Assembly (NCBI GenBank): GCA_019454205.1
Contig: CP075369.1
Coordinates: 1,747,051-1,779,050, forward strand
Source of the DNA: Xanthobacteraceae bacterium
GTDB lineage: Bacteria > Pseudomonadota > Alphaproteobacteria > Rhizobiales > Xanthobacteraceae
Reading direction: 5' to 3'
DNA: 32,000 bases
Both the position numbers and the translations under genes were made by a program. Shown here piece after piece: positions 868-32,000 of this stretch (positions are counted from its first letter, which is position 1; each line of letters begins with the position of its first letter). The notes below the pieces were generated by a model. It made no database searches. It saw nothing but the letters and a program-made list of their open reading frames with translations, and had not been told where the DNA came from.

Positions 868-1623
868 TTACTTCCTCAACAGCGCCAGCATCGTCGCCGC
901 TGCCGTGAACTCCCGGTGACGCGCGGCAAGCCGCCGCTGCGCTTCCGCGTCCTCGCCCCACTGGCTGATGTTCCATTGTTCGTCCACGTGCGTAGCATTC
1001 CACGCTTCGTCCGCGCCAAGCGCGCCTTCTGCGAGTGCCAGCGCAATCAATGCCGAACCGGAAAGATTGGTCGCGCTTGCCGCCGCCGCGAGACCGAACG
1101 GTCGCGACAACGTCTCCGCAATTCTTCGCACGCCACCGAGCGCCTGCTCGCTCTGCTTCGCGTGCACGATACCGGCAGCAAGCACCAAACGCGCACCGAA
1201 CGCCTGCTCCGCCCATCCAACGATGCGGTCCCATTGCTCCGCCTGCGCCGCGACCAGGCCTTCGGGTTCCTCCGCGCGGTAAAAAACCAGGTCGGTCCCG
1301 GCATATTGCACGATCTCGTCGATGACCGGCTGCGGCGCGAGGGCAATCGCGTCGATTGCGAGATTGGCGAGCCGCGTCAGCGGCAGTTTGACCGGATCGA
1401 CCACATCCTCGATGGCAGCCCACTCCGCCGCGACCGCATCCGCGAGTTTCCTGTTCGGCAGCAACAGGGATTTTTTCGCAGGCGTTTTCGCCGGCCGCCC
1501 GTCCAACAGAATTGCGAAACCACCCGGCGCTTCGCCGGCAGCCGCTTCCTTATAGAAGCGCTTCGGTAACTGCGCGCGCATTGCAGCCTGCGCACGGCGC
1601 ATCGGATTTTCTTCTTCGCTCAT
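868..1623 (-). CDS. ATP12 family chaperone (F1-ATPase assembly factor 2 homolog)
   Basis: C-terminal 251 aa of ORF 868..1917, starting MSEEENPMRRAQAAMRAQLPKRFYKEA...ILLDGRPAKTPAKK.L.LP...LA.AVAAEW, which is typical of alphaproteobacterial ATP12. The ATG at 1623-1621 overlaps the upstream stop (ATGA). Confidence 0.8.
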   Translation of the reverse strand: MSEEENPMRRAQAAMRAQLPKRFYKEAAAGEAPGGFAILLDGRPAKTPAKKSLLLPNRKLADAVAAEWAAIEDVVDPVKLPLTRLANLAIDAIALAPQPVIDEIVQYAGTDLVFYRAEEPEGLVAAQAEQWDRIVGWAEQAFGARLVLAAGIVHAKQSEQALGGVRRIAETLSRPFGLAAAASATNLSGSALIALALAEGALGADEAWNATHVDEQWNISQWGEDAEAQRRLAARHREFTAAATMLALLRK

Positions 1624-2666
1624 TCTTCCGGCGCTTCCACGATGGGATCGTAGGCCTTCGCGTCGAACGAGAGCAGGTTCCACGTCTGCTGCATGTGCGG
1701 CGGCAACGGCGCGGACACGTCGATCATGCCCTCGCCCTTCGGATGCGGAATAACGAGACGGCGCGCAAGCAGGTGCAGCCGGTTCTGCATGCCGCCCGGC
1801 AATTCCCAGTTCTCGATATCGAAATATTTCGGGTCGCCGACGATGGGATGACGGATATGCGCGGTATGCGCGCGAAGCTGGTGCGTGCGTCCGGTGACGG
1901 GCTTCAGCGAAATCCACGACACCTTCTGCGCCGCCTGCTCGATCACCGCGTAATACGTGACGGCGTGGCTGGCTTCGTCCTCGCCGTGTTTTGCAACGCG
2001 CATGAGTTCGCCGCCCTCGCCCGCGCCTTTCGCCAGATAGGTCGAGATGCGTCCCTGCCGCGGCTTTGGCACGCCGGCAACCAGCGCCCAGTAAATCTTC
2101 CGCGCGGAGCGCGAGCGGAATGTTTTTGCCAAGGTCGCGGCGGCGATCCGCGTTTTCGCAATCAGCAGAATGCCTGCCGTGTCCTTGTCGATACGATGCA
2201 CCAGCCGCGGCTTCTGTCCGTCGCGGCCGCGCAACGCTTCCAGCATGCCGTCGATGTGGCGCGTGGTGCCGGAGCCGCCCTGCACCGCAAGACCGAACGG
2301 CTTGTTTAGCACCATCACTTCGCGATCTTCGTAGAGCGTGATGGACTTAATGAACGCTGCATCGGCCTTCGCGTCGCCCATTTTCGAGGGCGCTTTCGTG
2401 GGGGACTTCGCGTGAGCATCATCTGCACCGCTCTCGCCGCCCTCCTGCTTTCCATTCTTTTCCTTCGAGAGCGGCGGCACGCGCACCGCCATGCCCGGCT
2501 CAAGGCGCGTGCTGGTTTTCGCGCGCGCGCCGTCCACGCGCACTTGTCCGGTGCGGAGCAGTTTCTGCAAATGACCGAACGAAAGATCGGGGAAGTTCGC
2601 CTTGAACCAACGGTCCAGGCGCATCCCGTCTTCGCCGTCTTTTACCTTGCGTGTCTGAACCGGCAT
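1620..2666 (-). CDS. rluC: RluA-family 23S rRNA pseudouridine synthase with N-terminal S4 domain (RluC-type)
   Basis: ORF 1620..2738 trimmed to MPVQTRKVKDGEDGMRLDRWF... (ATG 2666-2664). It has an S4-like N-terminus, the catalytic HRIDKDTAGILLIAKT motif and GRTHQLRAH. The symbol is a family-level guess only. Confidence 0.85.
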   Translation of the reverse strand: MPVQTRKVKDGEDGMRLDRWFKANFPDLSFGHLQKLLRTGQVRVDGARAKTSTRLEPGMAVRVPPLSKEKNGKQEGGESGADDAHAKSPTKAPSKMGDAKADAAFIKSITLYEDREVMVLNKPFGLAVQGGSGTTRHIDGMLEALRGRDGQKPRLVHRIDKDTAGILLIAKTRIAAATLAKTFRSRSARKIYWALVAGVPKPRQGRISTYLAKGAGEGGELMRVAKHGEDEASHAVTYYAVIEQAAQKVSWISLKPVTGRTHQLRAHTAHIRHPIVGDPKYFDIENWELPGGMQNRLHLLARRLVIPHPKGEGMIDVSAPLPPHMQQTWNLLSFDAKAYDPIVEAPEE

Positions 2667-2670
2667 CGCG

Positions 2671-3054
2671 TTACGCCACGCTACGCACGAGCCACATAGC
2701 AGCGAACATCGCCGCGATGGAAAGCACGACCGATGCAATCACATAAACCGCGCCAAGAAATACCTCGCCGCGCTCGAACAGCAGTGCGAAGTCGAGCGAG
2801 AACGCCGAGAAGGTCGTAAACCCGCCGAGAATTCCGGTGACGAGAAAAAGACGCAGCGATTGCGTCGTCGCGCCGTCGCCGCGGAATGCAAACCAAGCGG
2901 CCAATGCGCCGATCAGGAACGAGCCGACGATGTTCACCGTGAACGTGCCCCACGGGAACGAGGTGCCGAACCACTGCGCCGACGCGACGTTCACGCCGTG
3001 ACGTAGCCCGGAGCCGATGCCGCCGCCGAGAATGACAAGAAAGAGCGCATACAT
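2671..3054 (-). CDS. crcB: fluoride ion channel CrcB/FluC
   Basis: 127 aa with four hydrophobic helices. GGGIGSGLR, TFTVNIVGSFLIG and GILGGFTTFSAFS are hallmarks of CrcB. Confidence 0.9.
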   Translation of the reverse strand: MYALFLVILGGGIGSGLRHGVNVASAQWFGTSFPWGTFTVNIVGSFLIGALAAWFAFRGDGATTQSLRLFLVTGILGGFTTFSAFSLDFALLFERGEVFLGAVYVIASVVLSIAAMFAAMWLVRSVA

Positions 3055-3085
3055 GCGGCTGTTCCAGCGAGGAATGGAGAAGCCC

Positions 3086-3111
3086 GGAACCTAGTCCGCC
3101 CTTGCAGCGTT
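3086..3111 (+). promoter_or_regulatory. EcfG-type (general stress response ECF sigma) promoter motif GGAAC-N17-CGTT
   Basis: GGAAC at 3086-3090, a 17-nt spacer, then CGTT at 3108-3111. This lies 39 nt upstream of the ATG at 3151, with a GGAGGA Shine-Dalgarno in between. The -10 lies inside the perfect inverted repeat CAGCGTT-AGC-AACGCTG (3105-3121). Confidence 0.55.
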
Positions 3112-3150
3112 AGCAACGCTGAACCCCACCCTACGAGCGGAGGACGAGCC

Positions 3151-3516
3151 ATGCGGCGGCGATTTGCATTTCTTCTGGCGATCTCTGCCGGGTTCGCCGC
3201 CTCGGCGATGGCACAGCAGACTACCCCCGTTACGCCGCCCACGGCCCCGGCCGAAAACAAGCCCATGATTCGCGCGGAGCAGCAGGACCGGATTCGCGAA
3301 CTGGTCCGCAACGCCAAGGTGGATCATGCGGCCAAGGTTCGCTTCGATCTTCGGCTCGGCGCGGAGGTCCCGCGCAACCTGCATTTCTATCCACTGCCGA
3401 AGGAAGTGGCCGAGGCGGTCCCCGAATTCAGCAACTACTTCTATGTGGTAGCGGAGGAGAAAATCGTGGTGATCGATCCGTTAAAGTATCGCATCGTCGC
3501 CATAATTCCGGCCTGA
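3151..3516 (+). CDS. DUF1236 domain secreted protein
   Basis: Signal peptide MRRRFAFLLAISAGFAASAMA|QQ. The C-terminal pattern VPRNLHFYPLPKEV...P.FSNYFYVVAEEKIVVIDPLKYRIVAII fits the DUF1236 family common in Rhizobiales-type genomes. Confidence 0.75.
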   Translation: MRRRFAFLLAISAGFAASAMAQQTTPVTPPTAPAENKPMIRAEQQDRIRELVRNAKVDHAAKVRFDLRLGAEVPRNLHFYPLPKEVAEAVPEFSNYFYVVAEEKIVVIDPLKYRIVAIIPA

Positions 3517-3534
3517 CGAAAAACGCCGCAATCC

Positions 3535-3559
3535 GGAACCACTCTTTAACAACGTCGTT
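3535..3559 (+). promoter_or_regulatory. EcfG-type promoter motif GGAAC-N16-CGTT
   Basis: GGAAC at 3535-3539, a 16-nt spacer, then CGTT at 3556-3559. This lies 35 nt upstream of the ATG at 3595. An AGGAA Shine-Dalgarno-like sequence sits about 5 nt before that ATG. Confidence 0.55.
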
Positions 3560-3594
3560 CTATGAGGTGGACGCCTCAGGCGGCAGGAACTCTC

Positions 3595-3837
3595 ATGCGG
3601 CTTACCTTGCTCACTTTCACCGTGCTTGCCGTCTTCACCTTCGGCATGGGCGCCTCTATGGCGCAGCAGCCGAAGCAGATGGACCCCGGCACCATCAAGG
3701 TGAATCCGCCGCAGCAGCCGGTTTCGCCCCCGGTGCAGACGCAGCCCGCACCGATTCCGCAAACCAACACTTCCCAGAATCCGTACCGCAATAATCGCGG
3801 CTTCATGGAAACCCCGTTACCGCCGCAGAAGCGCTAG
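3595..3837 (+). CDS. small secreted Pro/Gln-rich protein, function unknown
   Basis: ORF 3562..3837. I prefer the ATG at 3595 because the ATG at 3562 lies only 3 nt after the putative -10. Signal peptide MRLTLLTFTVLAVFTFGMGASMA|QQ, then low-complexity PPQQPVSPPVQTQPAPIPQT. Confidence 0.5.
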   Translation: MRLTLLTFTVLAVFTFGMGASMAQQPKQMDPGTIKVNPPQQPVSPPVQTQPAPIPQTNTSQNPYRNNRGFMETPLPPQKR

Positions 3838-5163
3838 CTACTTCTTCTCCGCGCGCAGCTTCGCCCAGTAGTCGAGCCGCTTTTTTACTTCGCGCTCGAA
3901 CCCGCGCTCGACCGGCTGATAAAACTCCTGCCGTCCGAGTTTCTCCGGGAAATAGTCCTGCCCGGAGAAAGCGCCCTCCGCGTCGTGGTCGTATTCGTAA
4001 CCGGACGAATAGCCCTCTTCTTCCATCAGCTTCGTCGGCGCATTCAGGATGTGCTTGGGTGGCATCAGCGACCCCGCCTCTTTCGCGACTTTCACCGCGC
4101 GCTTGTAGGCGACATAGGCGGCGTTCGATTTAGGCGCGGTCGCGACATAGATCACGGCCTGCGCCAGCGCGAGTTCGCCTTCCGGCGTGCCGAGGAAGTC
4201 GTAGGCATCTTTCGCCGCATTGGTGATGACCAGCGCATTCGGATCGGCCATGCCGATATCTTCCACCGCCATGCGCACCACGCGCCGCGCGATATAGAGC
4301 GGATTCTCGCCCGCATCCAGCATCCGCGCGAGATAATAGAGCGCGGCGTCGGCGTCGGAGCCGCGCACGCTCTTATGCAACGCGGAGATCAGGTTGTAGT
4401 GGCCGTCCTGCGACTTGTCGTAGATCGGCGCGCGGCGCTGCACGATCTCCTGCAACTGCGCGGAATTGAACACTTCGCCTTTGCGCGCGGCGCGCCATAC
4501 TTCCTCGCTCAGCGTCAGCACGGCGCGGCCATCGCCATCGGCCATGCGCGCGAGCGTAAGGCGCGCTTCCTCGTCCAACGGGAGTTTTTTCCCTTCCGCC
4601 TCCTCAGCGCGTGAAAGCAGGCGCAACAACGCTTCTTCGTCCAGCGACTTGAATACCAGTACCCGTGCGCGGGAAAGCAGCGCGGCGTTCAGTTCGAAAG
4701 AAGGATTTTCCGTTGTCGCCCCGACCAGCGTGACGGTGCCGTCTTCCATGACAGGCAGAAACGAATCCTGTTGCGCGCGGTTGAAGCGATGGATTTCGTC
4801 GACGAACAACAACGTGCCCGTGCCGGTTTCGCGCCGCGCACGCGCCGCGTCGAACACTTTCTTCAGGTCCGCGACGCCGGAGAACACCGCCGACACCTGT
4901 TCGAAATGCAAATCAGTTTCGTTGGCGAGCAGCCGCGCGACTGTGGTCTTGCCGGTCCCCGGCGGTCCCCAGAAGATCAATGAGCCGAGCGAGCGCGCTT
5001 CCAGCATCCGCGTCAGTGCACCGTCCGCGCCGGTTAGCTGTTCCTGCCCCACCACTTCGGAGAGCTTTGCCGGACGCAACTTGTCGGCCAGCGGACGCGG
5101 TGCATCGTCCGCGAAGCCGGCGGCTGCGAACAGGTTGTCTGCGGTTTGCGGGCGCTTCGCCAT
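3838..5163 (-). CDS. rarA: replication-associated recombination protein A (AAA+ ATPase RarA/MgsA)
   Basis: Walker A FWGPPGTGKTT, Walker B LLFVDEIHRF and the MgsA C-terminal domain (HYNLISALHKSVRGSDADAALYY). I prefer the ATG at 5163 (MAKRPQTADNLF) over the track's TTG at 5199. Confidence 0.9.
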   Translation of the reverse strand: MAKRPQTADNLFAAAGFADDAPRPLADKLRPAKLSEVVGQEQLTGADGALTRMLEARSLGSLIFWGPPGTGKTTVARLLANETDLHFEQVSAVFSGVADLKKVFDAARARRETGTGTLLFVDEIHRFNRAQQDSFLPVMEDGTVTLVGATTENPSFELNAALLSRARVLVFKSLDEEALLRLLSRAEEAEGKKLPLDEEARLTLARMADGDGRAVLTLSEEVWRAARKGEVFNSAQLQEIVQRRAPIYDKSQDGHYNLISALHKSVRGSDADAALYYLARMLDAGENPLYIARRVVRMAVEDIGMADPNALVITNAAKDAYDFLGTPEGELALAQAVIYVATAPKSNAAYVAYKRAVKVAKEAGSLMPPKHILNAPTKLMEEEGYSSGYEYDHDAEGAFSGQDYFPEKLGRQEFYQPVERGFEREVKKRLDYWAKLRAEKK

Positions 5164-15721: not shown

Positions 15722-16279
15722 TCACTGCCGGAAGGGAAAGTTCAGAGCCGCGAGCAAAGCGCGCGCCTCGTCGTCGGTTTTCGCCGTCGTGCAGACGATG
15801 ATGTCCATGCCCCAGACCGACTCCGTCTTGTCGTAGTCGATTTCCGGGAAAATGATGTGTTCCTTGATGCCGATCGTGTAGTTGCCGCGGCCGTCGAAGC
15901 TCTTCGGGTTGAGGCCGCGGAAGTCGCGGACGCGCGGCAGCGCAACCGTGACCAGACGATCGACGAATTCGTACATGCGGTCGCCGCGCAGCGTGACCTT
16001 CGTGCCGATGCCGATGTTCTCGCGAAGCTTGAAGTTCGCGATCGCCTTGCGGGCCTTCGTGATGATGGCCTTCTGGCCGGCAATCGCGGTCAGGTCGTTG
16101 GCGGCTGCGGTGACCTTCTTCTGGTCCGACGCACCCTCGCCCACGCCCATGTTCAGCACGACCTTGTCGAGCCGCGGCACGGCGAACGGATTCGAATAAC
16201 CGAACTGCTCGACGAGTTTCGAGCGGATGGTCTTCTCGAACTGCGTCTTCAGACGCGGTGTGTAATCTTTCTCAGCCAT
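15722..16279 (-). CDS. rplE: 50S ribosomal protein L5 (uL5)
   Basis: ORF 15722..16327 trimmed to [48 protein letters not shown]. The ATG at 16279 overlaps the end of rplX by 8 nt. Confidence 0.96.
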
Positions 16280-16592
16280 CGATCTGCTCTCCCGAGCGGC
16301 GTGCCACGCGCACCTTGCGCCCGTCATTCAAAACCTTGAATCCGATCCGCGTCGCTTTCTTGCTGTCCTTCGGATCGGCCAGCGCGATGTTCGACAGGTG
16401 GATCGGCGATTCCTTGTTCACGATGCCGCCTTCGGTCTTCGCCGACTGGCGCTGGTGACGGCGCACCATGTTGATGCCGCGAACCAGCGCACGGCTTTCC
16501 GAGACCTGTACTTCGATCACTTCGCCCGACTTGCCCTTGTCGCGGCCGGTCAGGACGATGACCTTGTCGCCTTTTCTGATCTTCGCGGCCAT
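16272..16592 (-). CDS. rplX: 50S ribosomal protein L24 (uL24)
   Basis: The C-terminal 106 aa of ORF 16272..16901: [28 protein letters not shown]... The ATG at 16592 overlaps the rplN stop by 1 nt (UAAUG). Confidence 0.96.
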
Positions 16593-23478: not shown

Positions 23479-23534
23479 CTTGCTCTCCGTTCAGCCTAAG
23501 CGGCGAAGTCCTGTTGAATCCAAATGCGAAAGGC

Positions 23535-25607
<2,073 letters not shown>

Positions 25608-25634
25608 GATGTGTCCTCGGCCGGTTTCTGCGCG

Positions 25635-26105
25635 TTACCAGCGGTAATGGGAAAAGGCGCGGTTCGCTTCGGCCATGCGATGCGTGTCTTCGCGCTTCTT
25701 GACGGCGTTGCCCCGGTTGTTGCTTGCGTCGAGCAGTTCGCCCGACAGACGGTCCACCATCGTCTTTTCGTTGCGCTCGCGCGCGGCGTCGATCAGCCAG
25801 CGGATGGCGAGCGCCTGGCGGCGGTCCGGACGGACTTCGACCGGCACCTGATAGGTCGCGCCGCCGACGCGGCGGGAGCGGACTTCGACCGACGGCGCGA
25901 CGTTGTCGAGCGCCGACTGGAAAACCGTGAGCGGGCTGGTCTTGGCCTTCGCCTCGATGACGTCGAGCGCGCCGTAGACGATTCCTTCGGCGACCGACTT
26001 CTTACCCTGCTTCATCACCGCATTCATGAAGCGGTTTACGACGAGCGATCCGAACTTCGGATCCGGAAGGAGTTCGCGTTTTTCTGCGCGGTGGCGGCGG
26101 GACAT
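25635..26105 (-). CDS. rpsG: 30S ribosomal protein S7 (uS7)
   Basis: [46 protein letters not shown]...AFSHYRW. Confidence 0.98.
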
Positions 26106-26118
26106 GTTCGCGCTCCCC

Positions 26119-26490
26119 TTACTTCGGACGCTTCGCGCCGTAGAGCGAACGGCGCTGTTTGCGGTTCTTGACGCCCTGCGTATCGAGGACGCCGCGGAGG
26201 ATGTGGTAGCGGACGCCCGGAAGATCCTTCACGCGGCCGCCGCGGATCATCACCACCGAGTGTTCCTGCAGGTTGTGGCCCTCACCCGGGATGTAGCCGA
26301 TCACTTCGAAGCCGTTGGTCAGGCGAACCTTGGCGACCTTGCGAAGCGCCGAGTTCGGCTTCTTCGGGGTCGTCGTATAGACGCGCGTGCAGACGCCGCG
26401 CTTCTGCGGCGACGCCTGAAGTGCCGGCACCTTGTTGCGGTAGCGCGGCGCGATCCGAGGCTTGCGGATGAGCTGGTTAATCGTAGGCAT
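26119..26490 (-). CDS. rpsL: 30S ribosomal protein S12 (uS12)
   Basis: ORF 26119..26580 trimmed to [60 protein letters not shown] (ATG 26490-26488). Confidence 0.97.
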
Positions 26491-26748
26491 TCGGCCTTCA
26501 CCCTGTGTTCGCCAAAGCCGCGTCCGGCTCCGGCAGTAGAAAAACGAGCAAACAAAACGTGCGCTCTTTCCACGGGACACGCGGAAAAGCGCCCATTTGC
26601 CTGCACAGAGGACCGAGTGCGGGTTGCCCCGGCCCGGTCGTACACCCTGATCTGACGTCGGTAGTCAGAGGCAGCGTCTCGGAACCCTGGATCTGCGCTG
26701 TTGCGCTGATCGGCGGATCCGACCGCCTGCCTGCAATTTCGAGCCGGG

Positions 26749-26777
26749 TTTTAGACTCGCGAGTCGGGATGCGTCAA
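26749..26777 (-). promoter_or_regulatory. candidate promoter of the str operon (rpsL-rpsG-fusA-tuf)
   Basis: The minus strand reads CTTGACG with TTGACG at 26777-26772, a 17-nt spacer, then CTAAAA at 26754-26749. It lies directly downstream of a hairpin and implies a leader of about 250 nt. Confidence 0.4.
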
Positions 26778-26780
26778 GGC

Positions 26781-26808
26781 AAAAACCCCTTGGGAATCGC
26801 GGGTTTTT
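26781..26808 (-). terminator. weak terminator-like hairpin flanked by A5/T5 (bidirectional in appearance)
   Basis: AAAAACCC-cttgggaatcgc-GGGTTTTT. Only 3 G:C pairs plus A:U pairs and a 12-nt loop, so the call is weak. It lies between the paralog cluster and the putative rpsL promoter. Confidence 0.3.
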
Positions 26809-27144
26809 GAGGCTTTTTGCCCCTGCTGGCCCCGTCACATTCAGGCGAAAAAGAGTCCACTCTTTTGCGCACGATTTCCCATTCATGAGAAAGCATGGAT
26901 GCCGGTCCGCGAGTCCGGCCGGAAGGCTTTACCACCGCATCCGCATTGCCCCGCATGGCGGGTTAATTGTCATTATTTTCCAGATACTTAGAGTTTCCGG
27001 TCAGGCCCTCAGGAGGCGGTCGAACTGATTCTGCCGGCCTTCAGCAAGTCTGTCGCCTGCGCCTCGGAGCACGGACCGCCCCCGGCACCCGCCGTTTCCG
27101 CCATCACGCCCCGCACAGCACGGTGACCCGAAACGAAAGAGACG

Positions 27145-27573
27145 TCAGCGCAGACCGCTTCCGGCAGAATTTTCATTGAACTCGATTCTGCGCACCGGCC
27201 GCGCGCGCCACTTCCCGTCCGGATGGCGGCAGACGGTCGCCTGAAATGTCGGATTCAGCCCGCCATCATTCGCGTGATGCACGACATGAATGAAGCGGCG
27301 GCAGAACCATGCGCCTTCGCTGTCCGGCACTTTCAGTCCCGCGATGATGGTGCCCGACGAACCATGCGGGCCGCGCCAGTCGTAGCCGGTAATCAAACCG
27401 TCCTGTGCCAGCACCGCCTGTTCGGCATCGTAGGCGGCAAGCTTGTCCTCGTAGCGCATCAGCGCGGTTTCCTTTTCCGCAAGTATTCCGGGCACGGACG
27501 GCGACTGCGCGAACGCGACGGACATCGCGCCGGAAATTTGCAGCGACAGAACTGCCGTAAGGAAGAGACGCAC
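27145..27573 (-). CDS. small secreted Cys-containing protein, paralog 1 of 3 (17-kDa-surface-antigen-like C-terminal module, unknown function)
   Basis: GTG start 4 nt after the paralog 2 stop. Signal peptide MRLFLTAVLSLQISGAMSVAFA|QS. Shared core GYDWRGPHGSSGTII...FCRRFIHVVHHANDGGLNPTFQATVCRHPDGKW. It has a unique C-terminal tail of about 19 aa. Confidence 0.7.
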   Translation of the reverse strand: MRLFLTAVLSLQISGAMSVAFAQSPSVPGILAEKETALMRYEDKLAAYDAEQAVLAQDGLITGYDWRGPHGSSGTIIAGLKVPDSEGAWFCRRFIHVVHHANDGGLNPTFQATVCRHPDGKWRARPVRRIEFNENSAGSGLR

Positions 27574-27577
27574 CGCC

Positions 27578-27964
27578 CTACCCGCTGATCCGTTCGCGCA
27601 ACGTCCACCGCCCGTCTACGCCGCGGCAAAGCGTGCCGACAAAGGTCGGATTCAACCCGCCATCGTTCTTGTGGTGCACGACATGGATGAAGCGGCGACA
27701 GAACGTGGCGCTCAACGTATCCGCGACCAGCCCGCCAACGATGACCGTACCGGACGCGCCATCCGGTCCCTTCCATTCATAGCCGGTGACGATTTCTCCG
27801 CTGACCAGCGCGGCGCGCTCTGCTTCCCGCGCGGCGAGCTTGTCCGGATAGGAAAGCGAGGCCGTCTCGCGGTCAGCGAAAATGCCGGACACTTTTTCCT
27901 GCTGCGCAACCGAAACCTGCATCGGCAACAGCAACGCTGCGAGAACCATCAAGCTGCGATTCAT
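27578..27964 (-). CDS. small secreted Cys-containing protein, paralog 2 of 3
   Basis: The ATG lies 15 nt after the paralog 3 stop. Signal peptide MNRSLMVLAALLLPMQVSVA|QQ. Core GYEWKGPDGASGTVIVGG...FCRRFIHVVHHKNDGGLNPTFVGTLCRGVDGRW. Confidence 0.75.
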   Translation of the reverse strand: MNRSLMVLAALLLPMQVSVAQQEKVSGIFADRETASLSYPDKLAAREAERAALVSGEIVTGYEWKGPDGASGTVIVGGLVADTLSATFCRRFIHVVHHKNDGGLNPTFVGTLCRGVDGRWTLRERISG

Positions 27965-27979
27965 TTTCCGTCCGCTTCG

Positions 27980-28342
27980 CTATTCTACCGCCCACTCGCC
28001 GTCCCAGCCGCGGCATACCTTACCACGAAAGGTGGGGTTCAAACCGCCGTCGTTTCCGTGGCGAATGATATGGATAAAGGTGCGGCACCTGCCGAGTGCA
28101 ACGTGATCGGGATATTCGCCGCCGACGATGATGAAGCCGCTCGCCCCATCCGGCCCGTGCCATTCGTAACTCTTGACCGGCACGTCGCGGTCGAGAACTT
28201 CCCTTTCGGCATTGGTTGCGGCCAAGCGGTCGCGATCGCTCAAGCCTTCGACTTCGCGCTTCGCCAGAATTTCGTGCGCAAGCAACGGCGAAACCGAAAC
28301 GCAGACAACAAACAATGCCGCGAACCAAATAGTCTTCTTCAT
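27980..28342 (-). CDS. small secreted Cys-containing protein, paralog 3 of 3
   Basis: ORF 27980..28744 trimmed to MKKTIWFAALFVVCVSVSPLLAHE... (ATG 28342-28340). Core SYEWHGPDGASGFIIVGG...RCRTFIHIIRHGNDGGLNPTFRGKVCRGWDGEW. The upstream in-frame part crosses the rpoC terminator and has AT-rich third codon positions. Confidence 0.7.
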   Translation of the reverse strand: MKKTIWFAALFVVCVSVSPLLAHEILAKREVEGLSDRDRLAATNAEREVLDRDVPVKSYEWHGPDGASGFIIVGGEYPDHVALGRCRTFIHIIRHGNDGGLNPTFRGKVCRGWDGEWAVE

Positions 28343-28371
28343 GCGAAGGCCGTGACACGGAAACATGAAAG

Positions 28372-28399
28372 AAAAAAGGACCGCCCTTTCGAGCGGCCC
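28372..28399 (-). promoter_or_regulatory. terminator-like hairpin plus U6 inside the leader of paralog 3 (possible attenuator or end of a small transcript)
   Basis: The minus strand reads GGGCCGC-ucgaaagg-GCGGUCC-UUUUUU. The stem is 7 bp and includes a G:U pair that exists only on the minus strand (A:C on the plus strand). The U-run ends 29 nt before the ATG at 28342. Confidence 0.4.
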
Positions 28400-28601
28400 T
28401 TGGGCGTCCCTGCAAATTTTTGCCTTCGAAAACTTCCCCCGGCATCCAATGAATAAGAACAACAGGCAGGACCATGCCGGCAGAAAGAACATAGCAGATT
28501 TACGCATCCCTCGCGCGTACCCTCTTTGCTCCGCAAGGACGGTAATACATTGCCTCAACGCGTTTACACACGCGAGAATAACGAGACGAACAAAGACAAA
28601 C

Positions 28602-28630
28602 AAAAAGGCCGCCCCGAAGGGCGGCCTTTT
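28602..28630 (-). terminator. rho-independent terminator after rpoC
   Basis: The minus strand reads AAAAGGCCGCCC-uucg-GGGCGGCC followed by UUUUUGUUUGUCUUUG. The hairpin starts 23 nt after the rpoC TAA stop. Confidence 0.85.
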
Positions 28631-28649
28631 GCATTTCATGCAGCGATAC

Positions 28650-32000
<3,351 letters not shown>

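Follow-up and report, generated by a model that had tools for sequence, protein, structure and literature searches.

Proteins of the 17-kDa-antigen type, gathered in Pfam family PF16998 (17kDa_Anti_2), are canonically outer-membrane lipoproteins with a lipobox, and literature searches on PF16998, COG4520, RT0821 and "17 kDa surface antigen" yielded diagnostic work on Rickettsia and expression lists but no study of what the domain does. Three genes remotely related to this family, here called A, B and C, lie between rpoC and rpsL in a 32,000-nt stretch of a Xanthobacteraceae genome (GenBank assembly GCA_019454205.1, contig CP075369.1, positions 1,747,051 to 1,779,050; hereafter the window, with positions counted from its first letter). 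An earlier note on this DNA, made from the letters alone, had taken the trio for a lineage-specific, internally duplicated secreted-protein cassette that splits two normally adjacent genes. Comparison with related loci points instead to an old, clade-restricted A-B-C operon of small exported PF16998-related proteins at a variable rpoC-rpsL slot, a reading to which a probability of about 0.7 is assigned.

The gap between the two housekeeping genes spans 26491-28649, or 2159 bp (rpoC stop at 28650-28652 on the minus strand, rpsL ATG at 26490), and the three tandem paralogous open reading frames (ORFs) were confirmed at the coordinates first given for them, all on the same strand and separated by 15 nt (A-B) and 4 nt (B-C; Table 1). 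Over their full length B and C are 47% and 42% identical to A, and the cassette DNA shows a tandem period of 387-397 bp that matches the gene trio. Forty-three columns are invariant among the three proteins, two cysteines and the block F-I-H-x-x-x-H-x-N-D-G-G-L-N-P-T-F among them. Each N-terminus has one or two basic residues, a hydrophobic core (maximum Kyte-Doolittle value of 2.0-2.9 over 10 residues) and an A-x-A-type site, and the predicted cleavage sites (LLA/HE, VSVA/QQ and VAFA/QS, the slash marking the cut) come with no lipobox, a pattern consistent with type-I signal peptides. The signal peptides and shared core of the earlier description are in agreement with these features, as is the lack of any link between the trio and transcription or translation, these being paralogs predicted to be exported. 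NCBI lists them as hypothetical proteins (KF794_08885, KF794_08880 and KF794_08875, "MAG: Xanthobacteraceae bacterium"), with a gene A of 175 amino acids that is extended over 28343-28507, across the sRNA-like element described below and its terminator; this version is probably over-extended, and homologue comparison favours 120 amino acids. Several gene callers start gene C 16 codons later (126 amino acids, with 27526-27573 dropped), which removes the signal peptide, and the same comparison favours the product of 142 amino acids. The protein encoded by gene C carries a 17-residue C-terminal tail absent from its orthologues.

A, B and C are real genes under purifying selection. Selection of this kind on homologues elsewhere, to which the earlier note had pointed as a check, is apparent in orthologue pairs across lineages, whose ratio of nonsynonymous to synonymous substitution rates (dN/dS) is 0.10-0.27; dS is high and the ratios are approximate, yet clearly below 1. 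Thirty-one columns are invariant over nine subfamily sequences, and the G+C contents at the first, second and third codon positions (GC1, GC2 and GC3) follow a coding-type pattern in all three genes. An AlphaFold2 model of B, built from the nine-sequence alignment, reaches a mean predicted local distance difference test score (pLDDT) of 83 and a predicted template modelling score (pTM) of 0.73; in it, one helix (residues 39-54) precedes six beta-strands. Going by this model, the mature part of each protein would be a single domain of about 100 amino acids in which the helix packs on a six-stranded antiparallel sheet. In one near-identical metagenome contig (OEIU01015457, L002 1522-2338) clustered non-conservative differences occur in B and C, with dN/dS of 0.6-0.9, for which errors of assembly or sequencing are a more probable cause than relaxed selection.

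The relationship to PF16998 is remote and can be traced by profile methods. Direct scores against the family model are 14.8 bits for A, 24.6 for B and 16.9 for C (gathering cut-off 26.6), and other subfamily members score 19-25 bits or give no match. From 1.84 billion representative proteins, a search with a nine-sequence subfamily profile recovered a rare subfamily of 4-5 clusters (50% identity) at E < 1e-20 and, beyond a sharp drop in score, about 170 proteins at E 1e-10 to 1e-3; most of the weaker matches checked bear PF16998 at or near its cut-off, several together with glycine-zipper domains. When the subfamily profile (A2) was aligned by hhalign with a profile of ten PF16998-positive proteins (A5), the match had a probability of 99.7% and an E-value of 2.6e-26 over 100 columns. 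IMG labels some subfamily members "surface antigen", and the suggestion that the proteins are undescribed does not hold for these remote homologues of a known domain. As far as the profiles can tell, A, B and C form a divergent, non-lipidated subfamily of the PF16998 domain family; they are not counted as ordinary members because they fall below the Pfam threshold and are without the lipoprotein and glycine-zipper architecture. One relative is a trypsin-like protease that bears two copies of the domain, and a protease-associated role hinted at by this fusion is speculative. Anti-phage defence models (PADLOC) gave no match to A, B or C at E <= 0.1, and a match to GhpA in the Protein Data Bank (PDB) was rejected, as it consisted of many tiny repeats of a Y-x-W-x-G-P-x-G motif, none of them significant singly.

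Loci of relatives were collected by a single scan of genomes, a single scan of metagenomes and look-ups of exact proteins. Many samples contain the window locus in near-identical form (L002, L007, L009 and L018-23, the L018-L023 contigs being 100% identical). Beyond these, cassette genes are found at the same rpoC-rpsL site in about nine related Xanthobacteraceae lineages, in sets that vary (A-C, B-A or A alone), and in the other lineages RpoC is about 90% and RpsL 96-100% identical to the window's, but the cassette proteins only 50-69%. A comparison of the spacer across relatives, proposed in the earlier note, hence bears out absence in some genomes and variable copy number, but not confinement of the cassette to this genome. 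The cassette does interrupt the rpoC-rpsL order, since it is missing from L008 and L010, in which RpsL is identical to that of the window and the spacer is 705-723 bp, and from Methylocystis-like and Nitratireductor loci, with spacers of about 730 and 850 bp. The two genes are nevertheless not directly adjacent in the empty state, the cassette-less spacers already measuring 705-850 bp in these four relatives. Relative to that state the cassette adds about 1.4-1.5 kb (28365-26840 in the window versus about 96 nt in L008).

Clustered by neighbour joining, the proteins fall into the orthologue types A, B and C, each common to several lineages; the paralogs, which are 42-59% identical to one another, therefore arose before these lineages diverged. 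In trees built from the rpsL leader region and from the RpoC C-terminus, the cassette-less L008 and L010 fall inside the cassette-bearing group, as sisters of L001/L029, and because of this nesting the empty state in L008 and L010 is most simply read as loss. No relics of cassette genes were found in the cassette-less spacers, tblastn detected no remains of a fourth paralog in the 305 bp that follow gene C, and a tblastn match at about 16190-16300 of the window (E about 0.005) was dismissed, lying inside a ribosomal-protein region.

The neighbours of the cassette vary as well. In five lineages a protein of about 365 amino acids that has a LuxR/GerE helix-turn-helix at its C-terminus and an N-terminal region without an assignment is encoded upstream of the cassette (L024 1-5383, L025 1-4326, L001 2495-3586, L003 13-1029 and L029 2533-3633); no relic of such a gene was found between rpoC and gene A in the window. 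In L003 the stretch 1612-5002, coding for a Peripla_BP_4 periplasmic binding protein and a dCache hybrid histidine kinase, is inserted between the A-type and C-type genes, which shows that the slot accepts further signalling genes.

Two further parts of the gap, overlooked in the earlier note, frame the cassette: a structured small RNA (sRNA)-like element with a second terminator (28401-28376) on one side, and an rpsL promoter-like site with a long leader on the other. The element consists of a 5' hairpin (CCGGCAT...ATGCCGG) whose loop (GTCCTGCCT..CTTAT..ATTGG) is highly conserved, a second, weak hairpin in the middle, a G-rich stretch (mostly GGGGGAATTGCAAG, but divergent in the window) and the intrinsic terminator, which ends 33 nt 5' of the gene A ATG. 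It aligns over seven divergent loci, including the two cassette-less ones (L008 and L010), with 27 pairs in the RNAalifold consensus. A covariance model (R1) scores 103-137 bits in eight lineages, 73 bits in L024-27 and 126 bits in L029/31, and the copies in L024-27 and L029/31 carry compensatory changes such as TTGGCAT/ATGCCAA and AGAGCCGCTC/GAGCGGCTCT. Counted over the 27 pairs, in eight sequences and an alignment fitted to the model, 95% of cells are paired, eight pairs are changed on both sides and 0 of 500 shuffles reach the score; slid controls are 37-52% paired, and G-U pairs support the minus strand. By the same model the element is absent from L015, L028 and the Methylocystis and Nitratireductor spacers. 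Rfam 15 gave only terminator-driven matches far below gathering for the window element and rpsL leader, and none at all in the L001, L006, L008 and L010 spacers. Upstream of the element only a -10-like CTATGT/CTATGA box about 10 nt away was seen, with no conserved -35 and no convincing promoter. A sigma-54 promoter in the conserved GGCATGGTCCTGC was rejected, its GG-GC spacing being one base short, and inspection found no EcfG-type promoter (GGAAC-N16-17-CGTT) upstream of gene A. A pairing of the element loop (CCUGCCUG) with CAGGCAGG at the 5' end of the rpsL leader was dropped too, the 8-nt match being altered one-sidedly in L024 and L003.

Downstream of the trio the earlier note had seen about 650 bp of noncoding DNA. 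The 654 bp between gene C and rpsL indeed hold no conserved ORF, but they are not uniform, as some 350 bp are conserved across relatives, comprising about 285 bp of rpsL promoter and leader and about 60 bp upstream of it. The remaining stretch next to gene C aligns with no other lineage and has a 12-bp A/T-rich hairpin at its end (26845-26870), a possible terminator of the cassette. The promoter-like site is invariant or nearly so in eight distinct lineages, although a strict sigma-70 scan did not call it, and it may well represent the promoter of the rpsL operon. The leader that follows is 83-87% identical (blastn) to four divergent lineages compared with the window, aligns over the eight distinct lineages and has a core recognisable in the Methylocystis-like spacer. 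It is strongly structured (RNAalifold, -93.7 kcal/mol and 81 pairs with almost no variation), its sequences are too uniform for covariation to show, and it is a candidate attenuator or leader of ribosomal-protein genes. The cassette slot lies between the terminator of the sRNA-like element and this rpsL promoter.

Table 1. Features of the rpoC-rpsL region in the window, with the gene order of related loci.
Feature	Position	Strand	Remarks
rpoC, 3' part (RNA polymerase beta' subunit)	28650..31952	-	ORF and translation; ORF continues towards the window end
rpoC intrinsic terminator	28603..28630	-	AAAAGGCCGCCC-TTCG-GGGCGGCCTTTT, then T-run; 12 pairs, 8 of them G-C
Conserved structured sRNA-like element, ~120 nt	28369..28488	-	between rpoC terminator and gene A
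Gene A, type A protein (export predicted), 120 aa	27980..28342	-	one PF16998-like domain, two conserved cysteines
Gene B, type B protein (export predicted), 128 aa	27578..27964	-	best PF16998 match of the trio
Gene C, type C protein (export predicted), 142 aa	27145..27573	-	GTG start; identical to P0005 / QYK43920.1
Non-conserved 3' non-coding stretch of cassette	26840..27144	-	aligns with no other lineage
Promoter-like site of rpsL (str) operon	26749..26778	-	CTTGAC-N17-TCTAAA(A); read from sequence
Conserved rpsL 5' leader, ~260 nt	26491..26748	-	terminator-like hairpin, T-rich run ~45-85 nt 5' of ATG
rpsL (ribosomal protein S12, 123 aa)	26119..26490	-	PF00164; followed by rpsG and fusA (PF00177)
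Locus L001 (= L005, L029-31)			rpoC - LuxR-like - A - C - rpsL
Locus L004			LuxR-like - A - C; contig cut at both ends
Loci L024-27			five tandem LuxR-like genes - A - C - rpsL
Locus L003			LuxR-like - A - [periplasmic binding protein + dCache hybrid histidine kinase] - C - rpsL
Locus L006			rpoC - A - C
Locus L015			rpoC - B - A - rpsL
Locus L028			molybdoenzyme gene - A - rpsL

Several other explanations of the cassette can be weighed against these observations. That the ORFs are non-functional, either chance ORFs in G+C-rich DNA or decaying pseudogenes, would agree with the bare hypothetical label at NCBI, the weak ribosome-binding site of gene A and the disagreement of gene callers on starts, but it is effectively refuted by the low dN/dS, the invariant columns, the confident fold and the clear homology to a large family. 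A recent, genome-specific horizontal insertion or local triplication that split a tight junction, a reading akin to the one first proposed, is very unlikely. Close relatives with identical RpsL and no cassette, a GC3 somewhat below that of the neighbours and the great rarity of the family would suit a newcomer; against it, A, B and C orthologues share one site across about nine lineages and have diverged well beyond RpoC, cassette-less lineages are nested among the bearers, and the low identity of the paralogs makes them too old for a recent triplication. A repeat search found no direct or inverted repeats at the cassette borders, the ORF list of the gap holds no insertion sequence elements and no transposase or integrase genes, and the G+C content in the gap (0.58-0.65) is similar to that of the surroundings, so that the cassette bears none of the marks of a mobile genomic island (integrase or transposase, border repeats, atypical composition). 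The internal duplication is likewise not lineage-specific, A, B and C being old orthologue groups at one site in several lineages, with loss nested among them. On the alignments and trees, the cassette is best described as an old, clade-restricted occupant of a variable slot, and as neither a recent insertion nor a recent triplication.

The remaining alternatives concern how the cassette is controlled. The sRNA-like element might be a dedicated cis-acting leader of the cassette, a riboswitch or attenuator with conditional termination under the control of a ligand or protein: wherever both occur it lies directly 5' of gene A, with the ATG 24-40 nt past the element terminator, and its conserved structured 5' domain and terminator show covariation. 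This reading is unlikely, given that the element is just as well conserved in the cassette-less L008 and L010, down to compensatory changes in its terminator stem, that L015 and L028 have cassette genes with no element, and that neither an alternative anti-terminator pairing nor an Rfam riboswitch match was identified. Because the element persists without the cassette and the cassette without the element, the comparison favours an independent sRNA. The cassette could also be the regulated output of the LuxR-like proteins, its products serving as effectors of cell-cell or envelope signalling, with the regulator moved or lost in the window genome. In favour of such a link, five lineages have the regulator gene directly before the element and gene A, one of them in five tandem copies, and in L003 kinase and binding-protein genes lie between A and C; yet it is unlikely on balance, since the cassette comes with no regulator in the window, L006, L015 and L028, an autoinducer-binding domain was not detected in the LuxR-like proteins, and the co-location may merely reflect a shared insertion-tolerant site. 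That the LuxR-like neighbours are regulators at all is speculative. Quite improbable, finally, is a proposal that joins these elements in one scheme, in which the element would be an undescribed small RNA whose terminator acts as an entry gate, yielding the sRNA on termination and the exported-protein mRNA on read-through, while the paralogs would form a hetero-oligomeric periplasmic complex from a new, non-lipidated branch of the surface-antigen fold, with control by amplified LuxR-like proteins in other lineages.

For the preferred reading, an old A-B-C operon at a variable slot, the following working can be outlined. A single A-B-C transcript may be expected, because the genes are only 15 and 4 nt apart. 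The short distance from the element terminator to the gene A ATG leaves no room for a separate sigma-70-type promoter, and transcription would probably reach the cassette by reading through that terminator or start from a promoter that overlaps it. The strong rpoC terminator of the earlier note is present, equivalent hairpins stand 3' of rpoC in L001, L008, L010, L006 and L015, and the cassette would thus be insulated from rpoBC by two terminators, and the str operon from the cassette by a promoter of its own. The products would be exported by the Sec pathway, their two invariant cysteines probably forming a disulfide, and they are most likely soluble periplasmic or loosely envelope-associated binding modules, a placement suggested because the membrane anchors of the canonical relatives (lipobox and glycine zipper) are missing. 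Probably the three old paralog types either differ in role or cooperate, and the conserved H-x3-H / N-D loop (H-x3-H-x-N-D-G-G-x-N-P-T-F in the subfamily) as a ligand or metal site is a speculative assignment.

Some observations weigh against this reading. Cassette genes occur in L015 and L028 without the sRNA-like element, and read-through from the element is therefore no universal mode of expression. All three proteins fall short of the PF16998 gathering cut-off, an NCBIfam scan of A, B and C gave no match, a PDB sequence search with the subfamily profile and the ten-sequence PF16998-positive profile found no solved structure among the relatives, and Foldseek against the PDB returned no significant match. 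Export was judged by eye and hydropathy, not by a dedicated predictor, and the GC3 of the cassette genes, 0.69-0.76 versus 0.83-0.87 in rpsL, rpsG, fusA and rpoC, suggests modest expression.

As to the flanking genes, the identity of rpoC is supported by RNA_pol_Rpb1_1-5 Pfam domains in the gene upstream of the spacer in relatives. Two long ORFs on the plus strand, one of 885 amino acids (23514-26171) antisense to fusA, rpsG and rpsL and one of 759 amino acids (28365-30644) antisense to rpoC, are shadow ORFs typical of G+C-rich DNA and no genes.

These results do not overturn current understanding, the trio being clade-restricted genes and no new kind of system. In one Xanthobacteraceae clade the rpoC-rpsL spacer, commonly regarded as a fixed junction, proves to be a variable slot that gathers genes for exported proteins and regulators around a conserved sRNA-like element. 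If the reading proposed here is right, it adds a compact soluble branch to a widespread, functionally uncharacterised envelope domain without a solved structure, and such small, disulfide-bonded single-domain proteins would be handy for structural and binding studies of the PF16998 fold. The element and the long rpsL leader are, in addition, candidate new RNA families.

Set beside described systems, the locus combines familiar traits with its own. Like the rho-independent trans-acting sRNAs of the Alphaproteobacteria, the element is an intergenic RNA candidate of about 120 nt with a conserved stem-loop and an intrinsic terminator, conserved independently of its neighbours; it differs from them in belonging to no Rfam 15 family, in having no convincing -35/-10 and in its restriction to one clade, and stands as a sequence-based candidate. 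Rfam contains rpsL leaders for Rickettsia and Pseudomonas. The window leader resembles rpsL leaders and attenuators in being a long structured 5' untranslated region between a promoter-like site and rpsL with a terminator-like hairpin, and it differs from the Rfam leaders in matching no Rfam family at E <= 1 and in sequences too similar for covariation. With the PF16998 family, A, B and C share predicted export, the helix motif D-[KR]-x-A-A-x-x-A-E-x-x-A-L, the motifs W-x-G-x-x-G, C-R-x-[FY]-x-H and G-x-x-C-R-x-x-D-G-x-W, and both cysteines; the cysteine pair and the signature C-R-x-x-x-H ... C-R-x-x-D-G-x-W are invariant in the subfamily alignments (A1 and A2) and in the PF16998-positive set (A5). 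In place of the lipobox they have a putative type-I signal peptide, and the glycine zipper (PF13488/PF05433) of typical members such as P0014, P0022 and P0023 has no Pfam match in them. Unlike the parent family, they carry a second conserved histidine and the N-D-G-G-x-N-P-T-F loop, and one to three of them stand in tandem at a fixed place in the chromosome.

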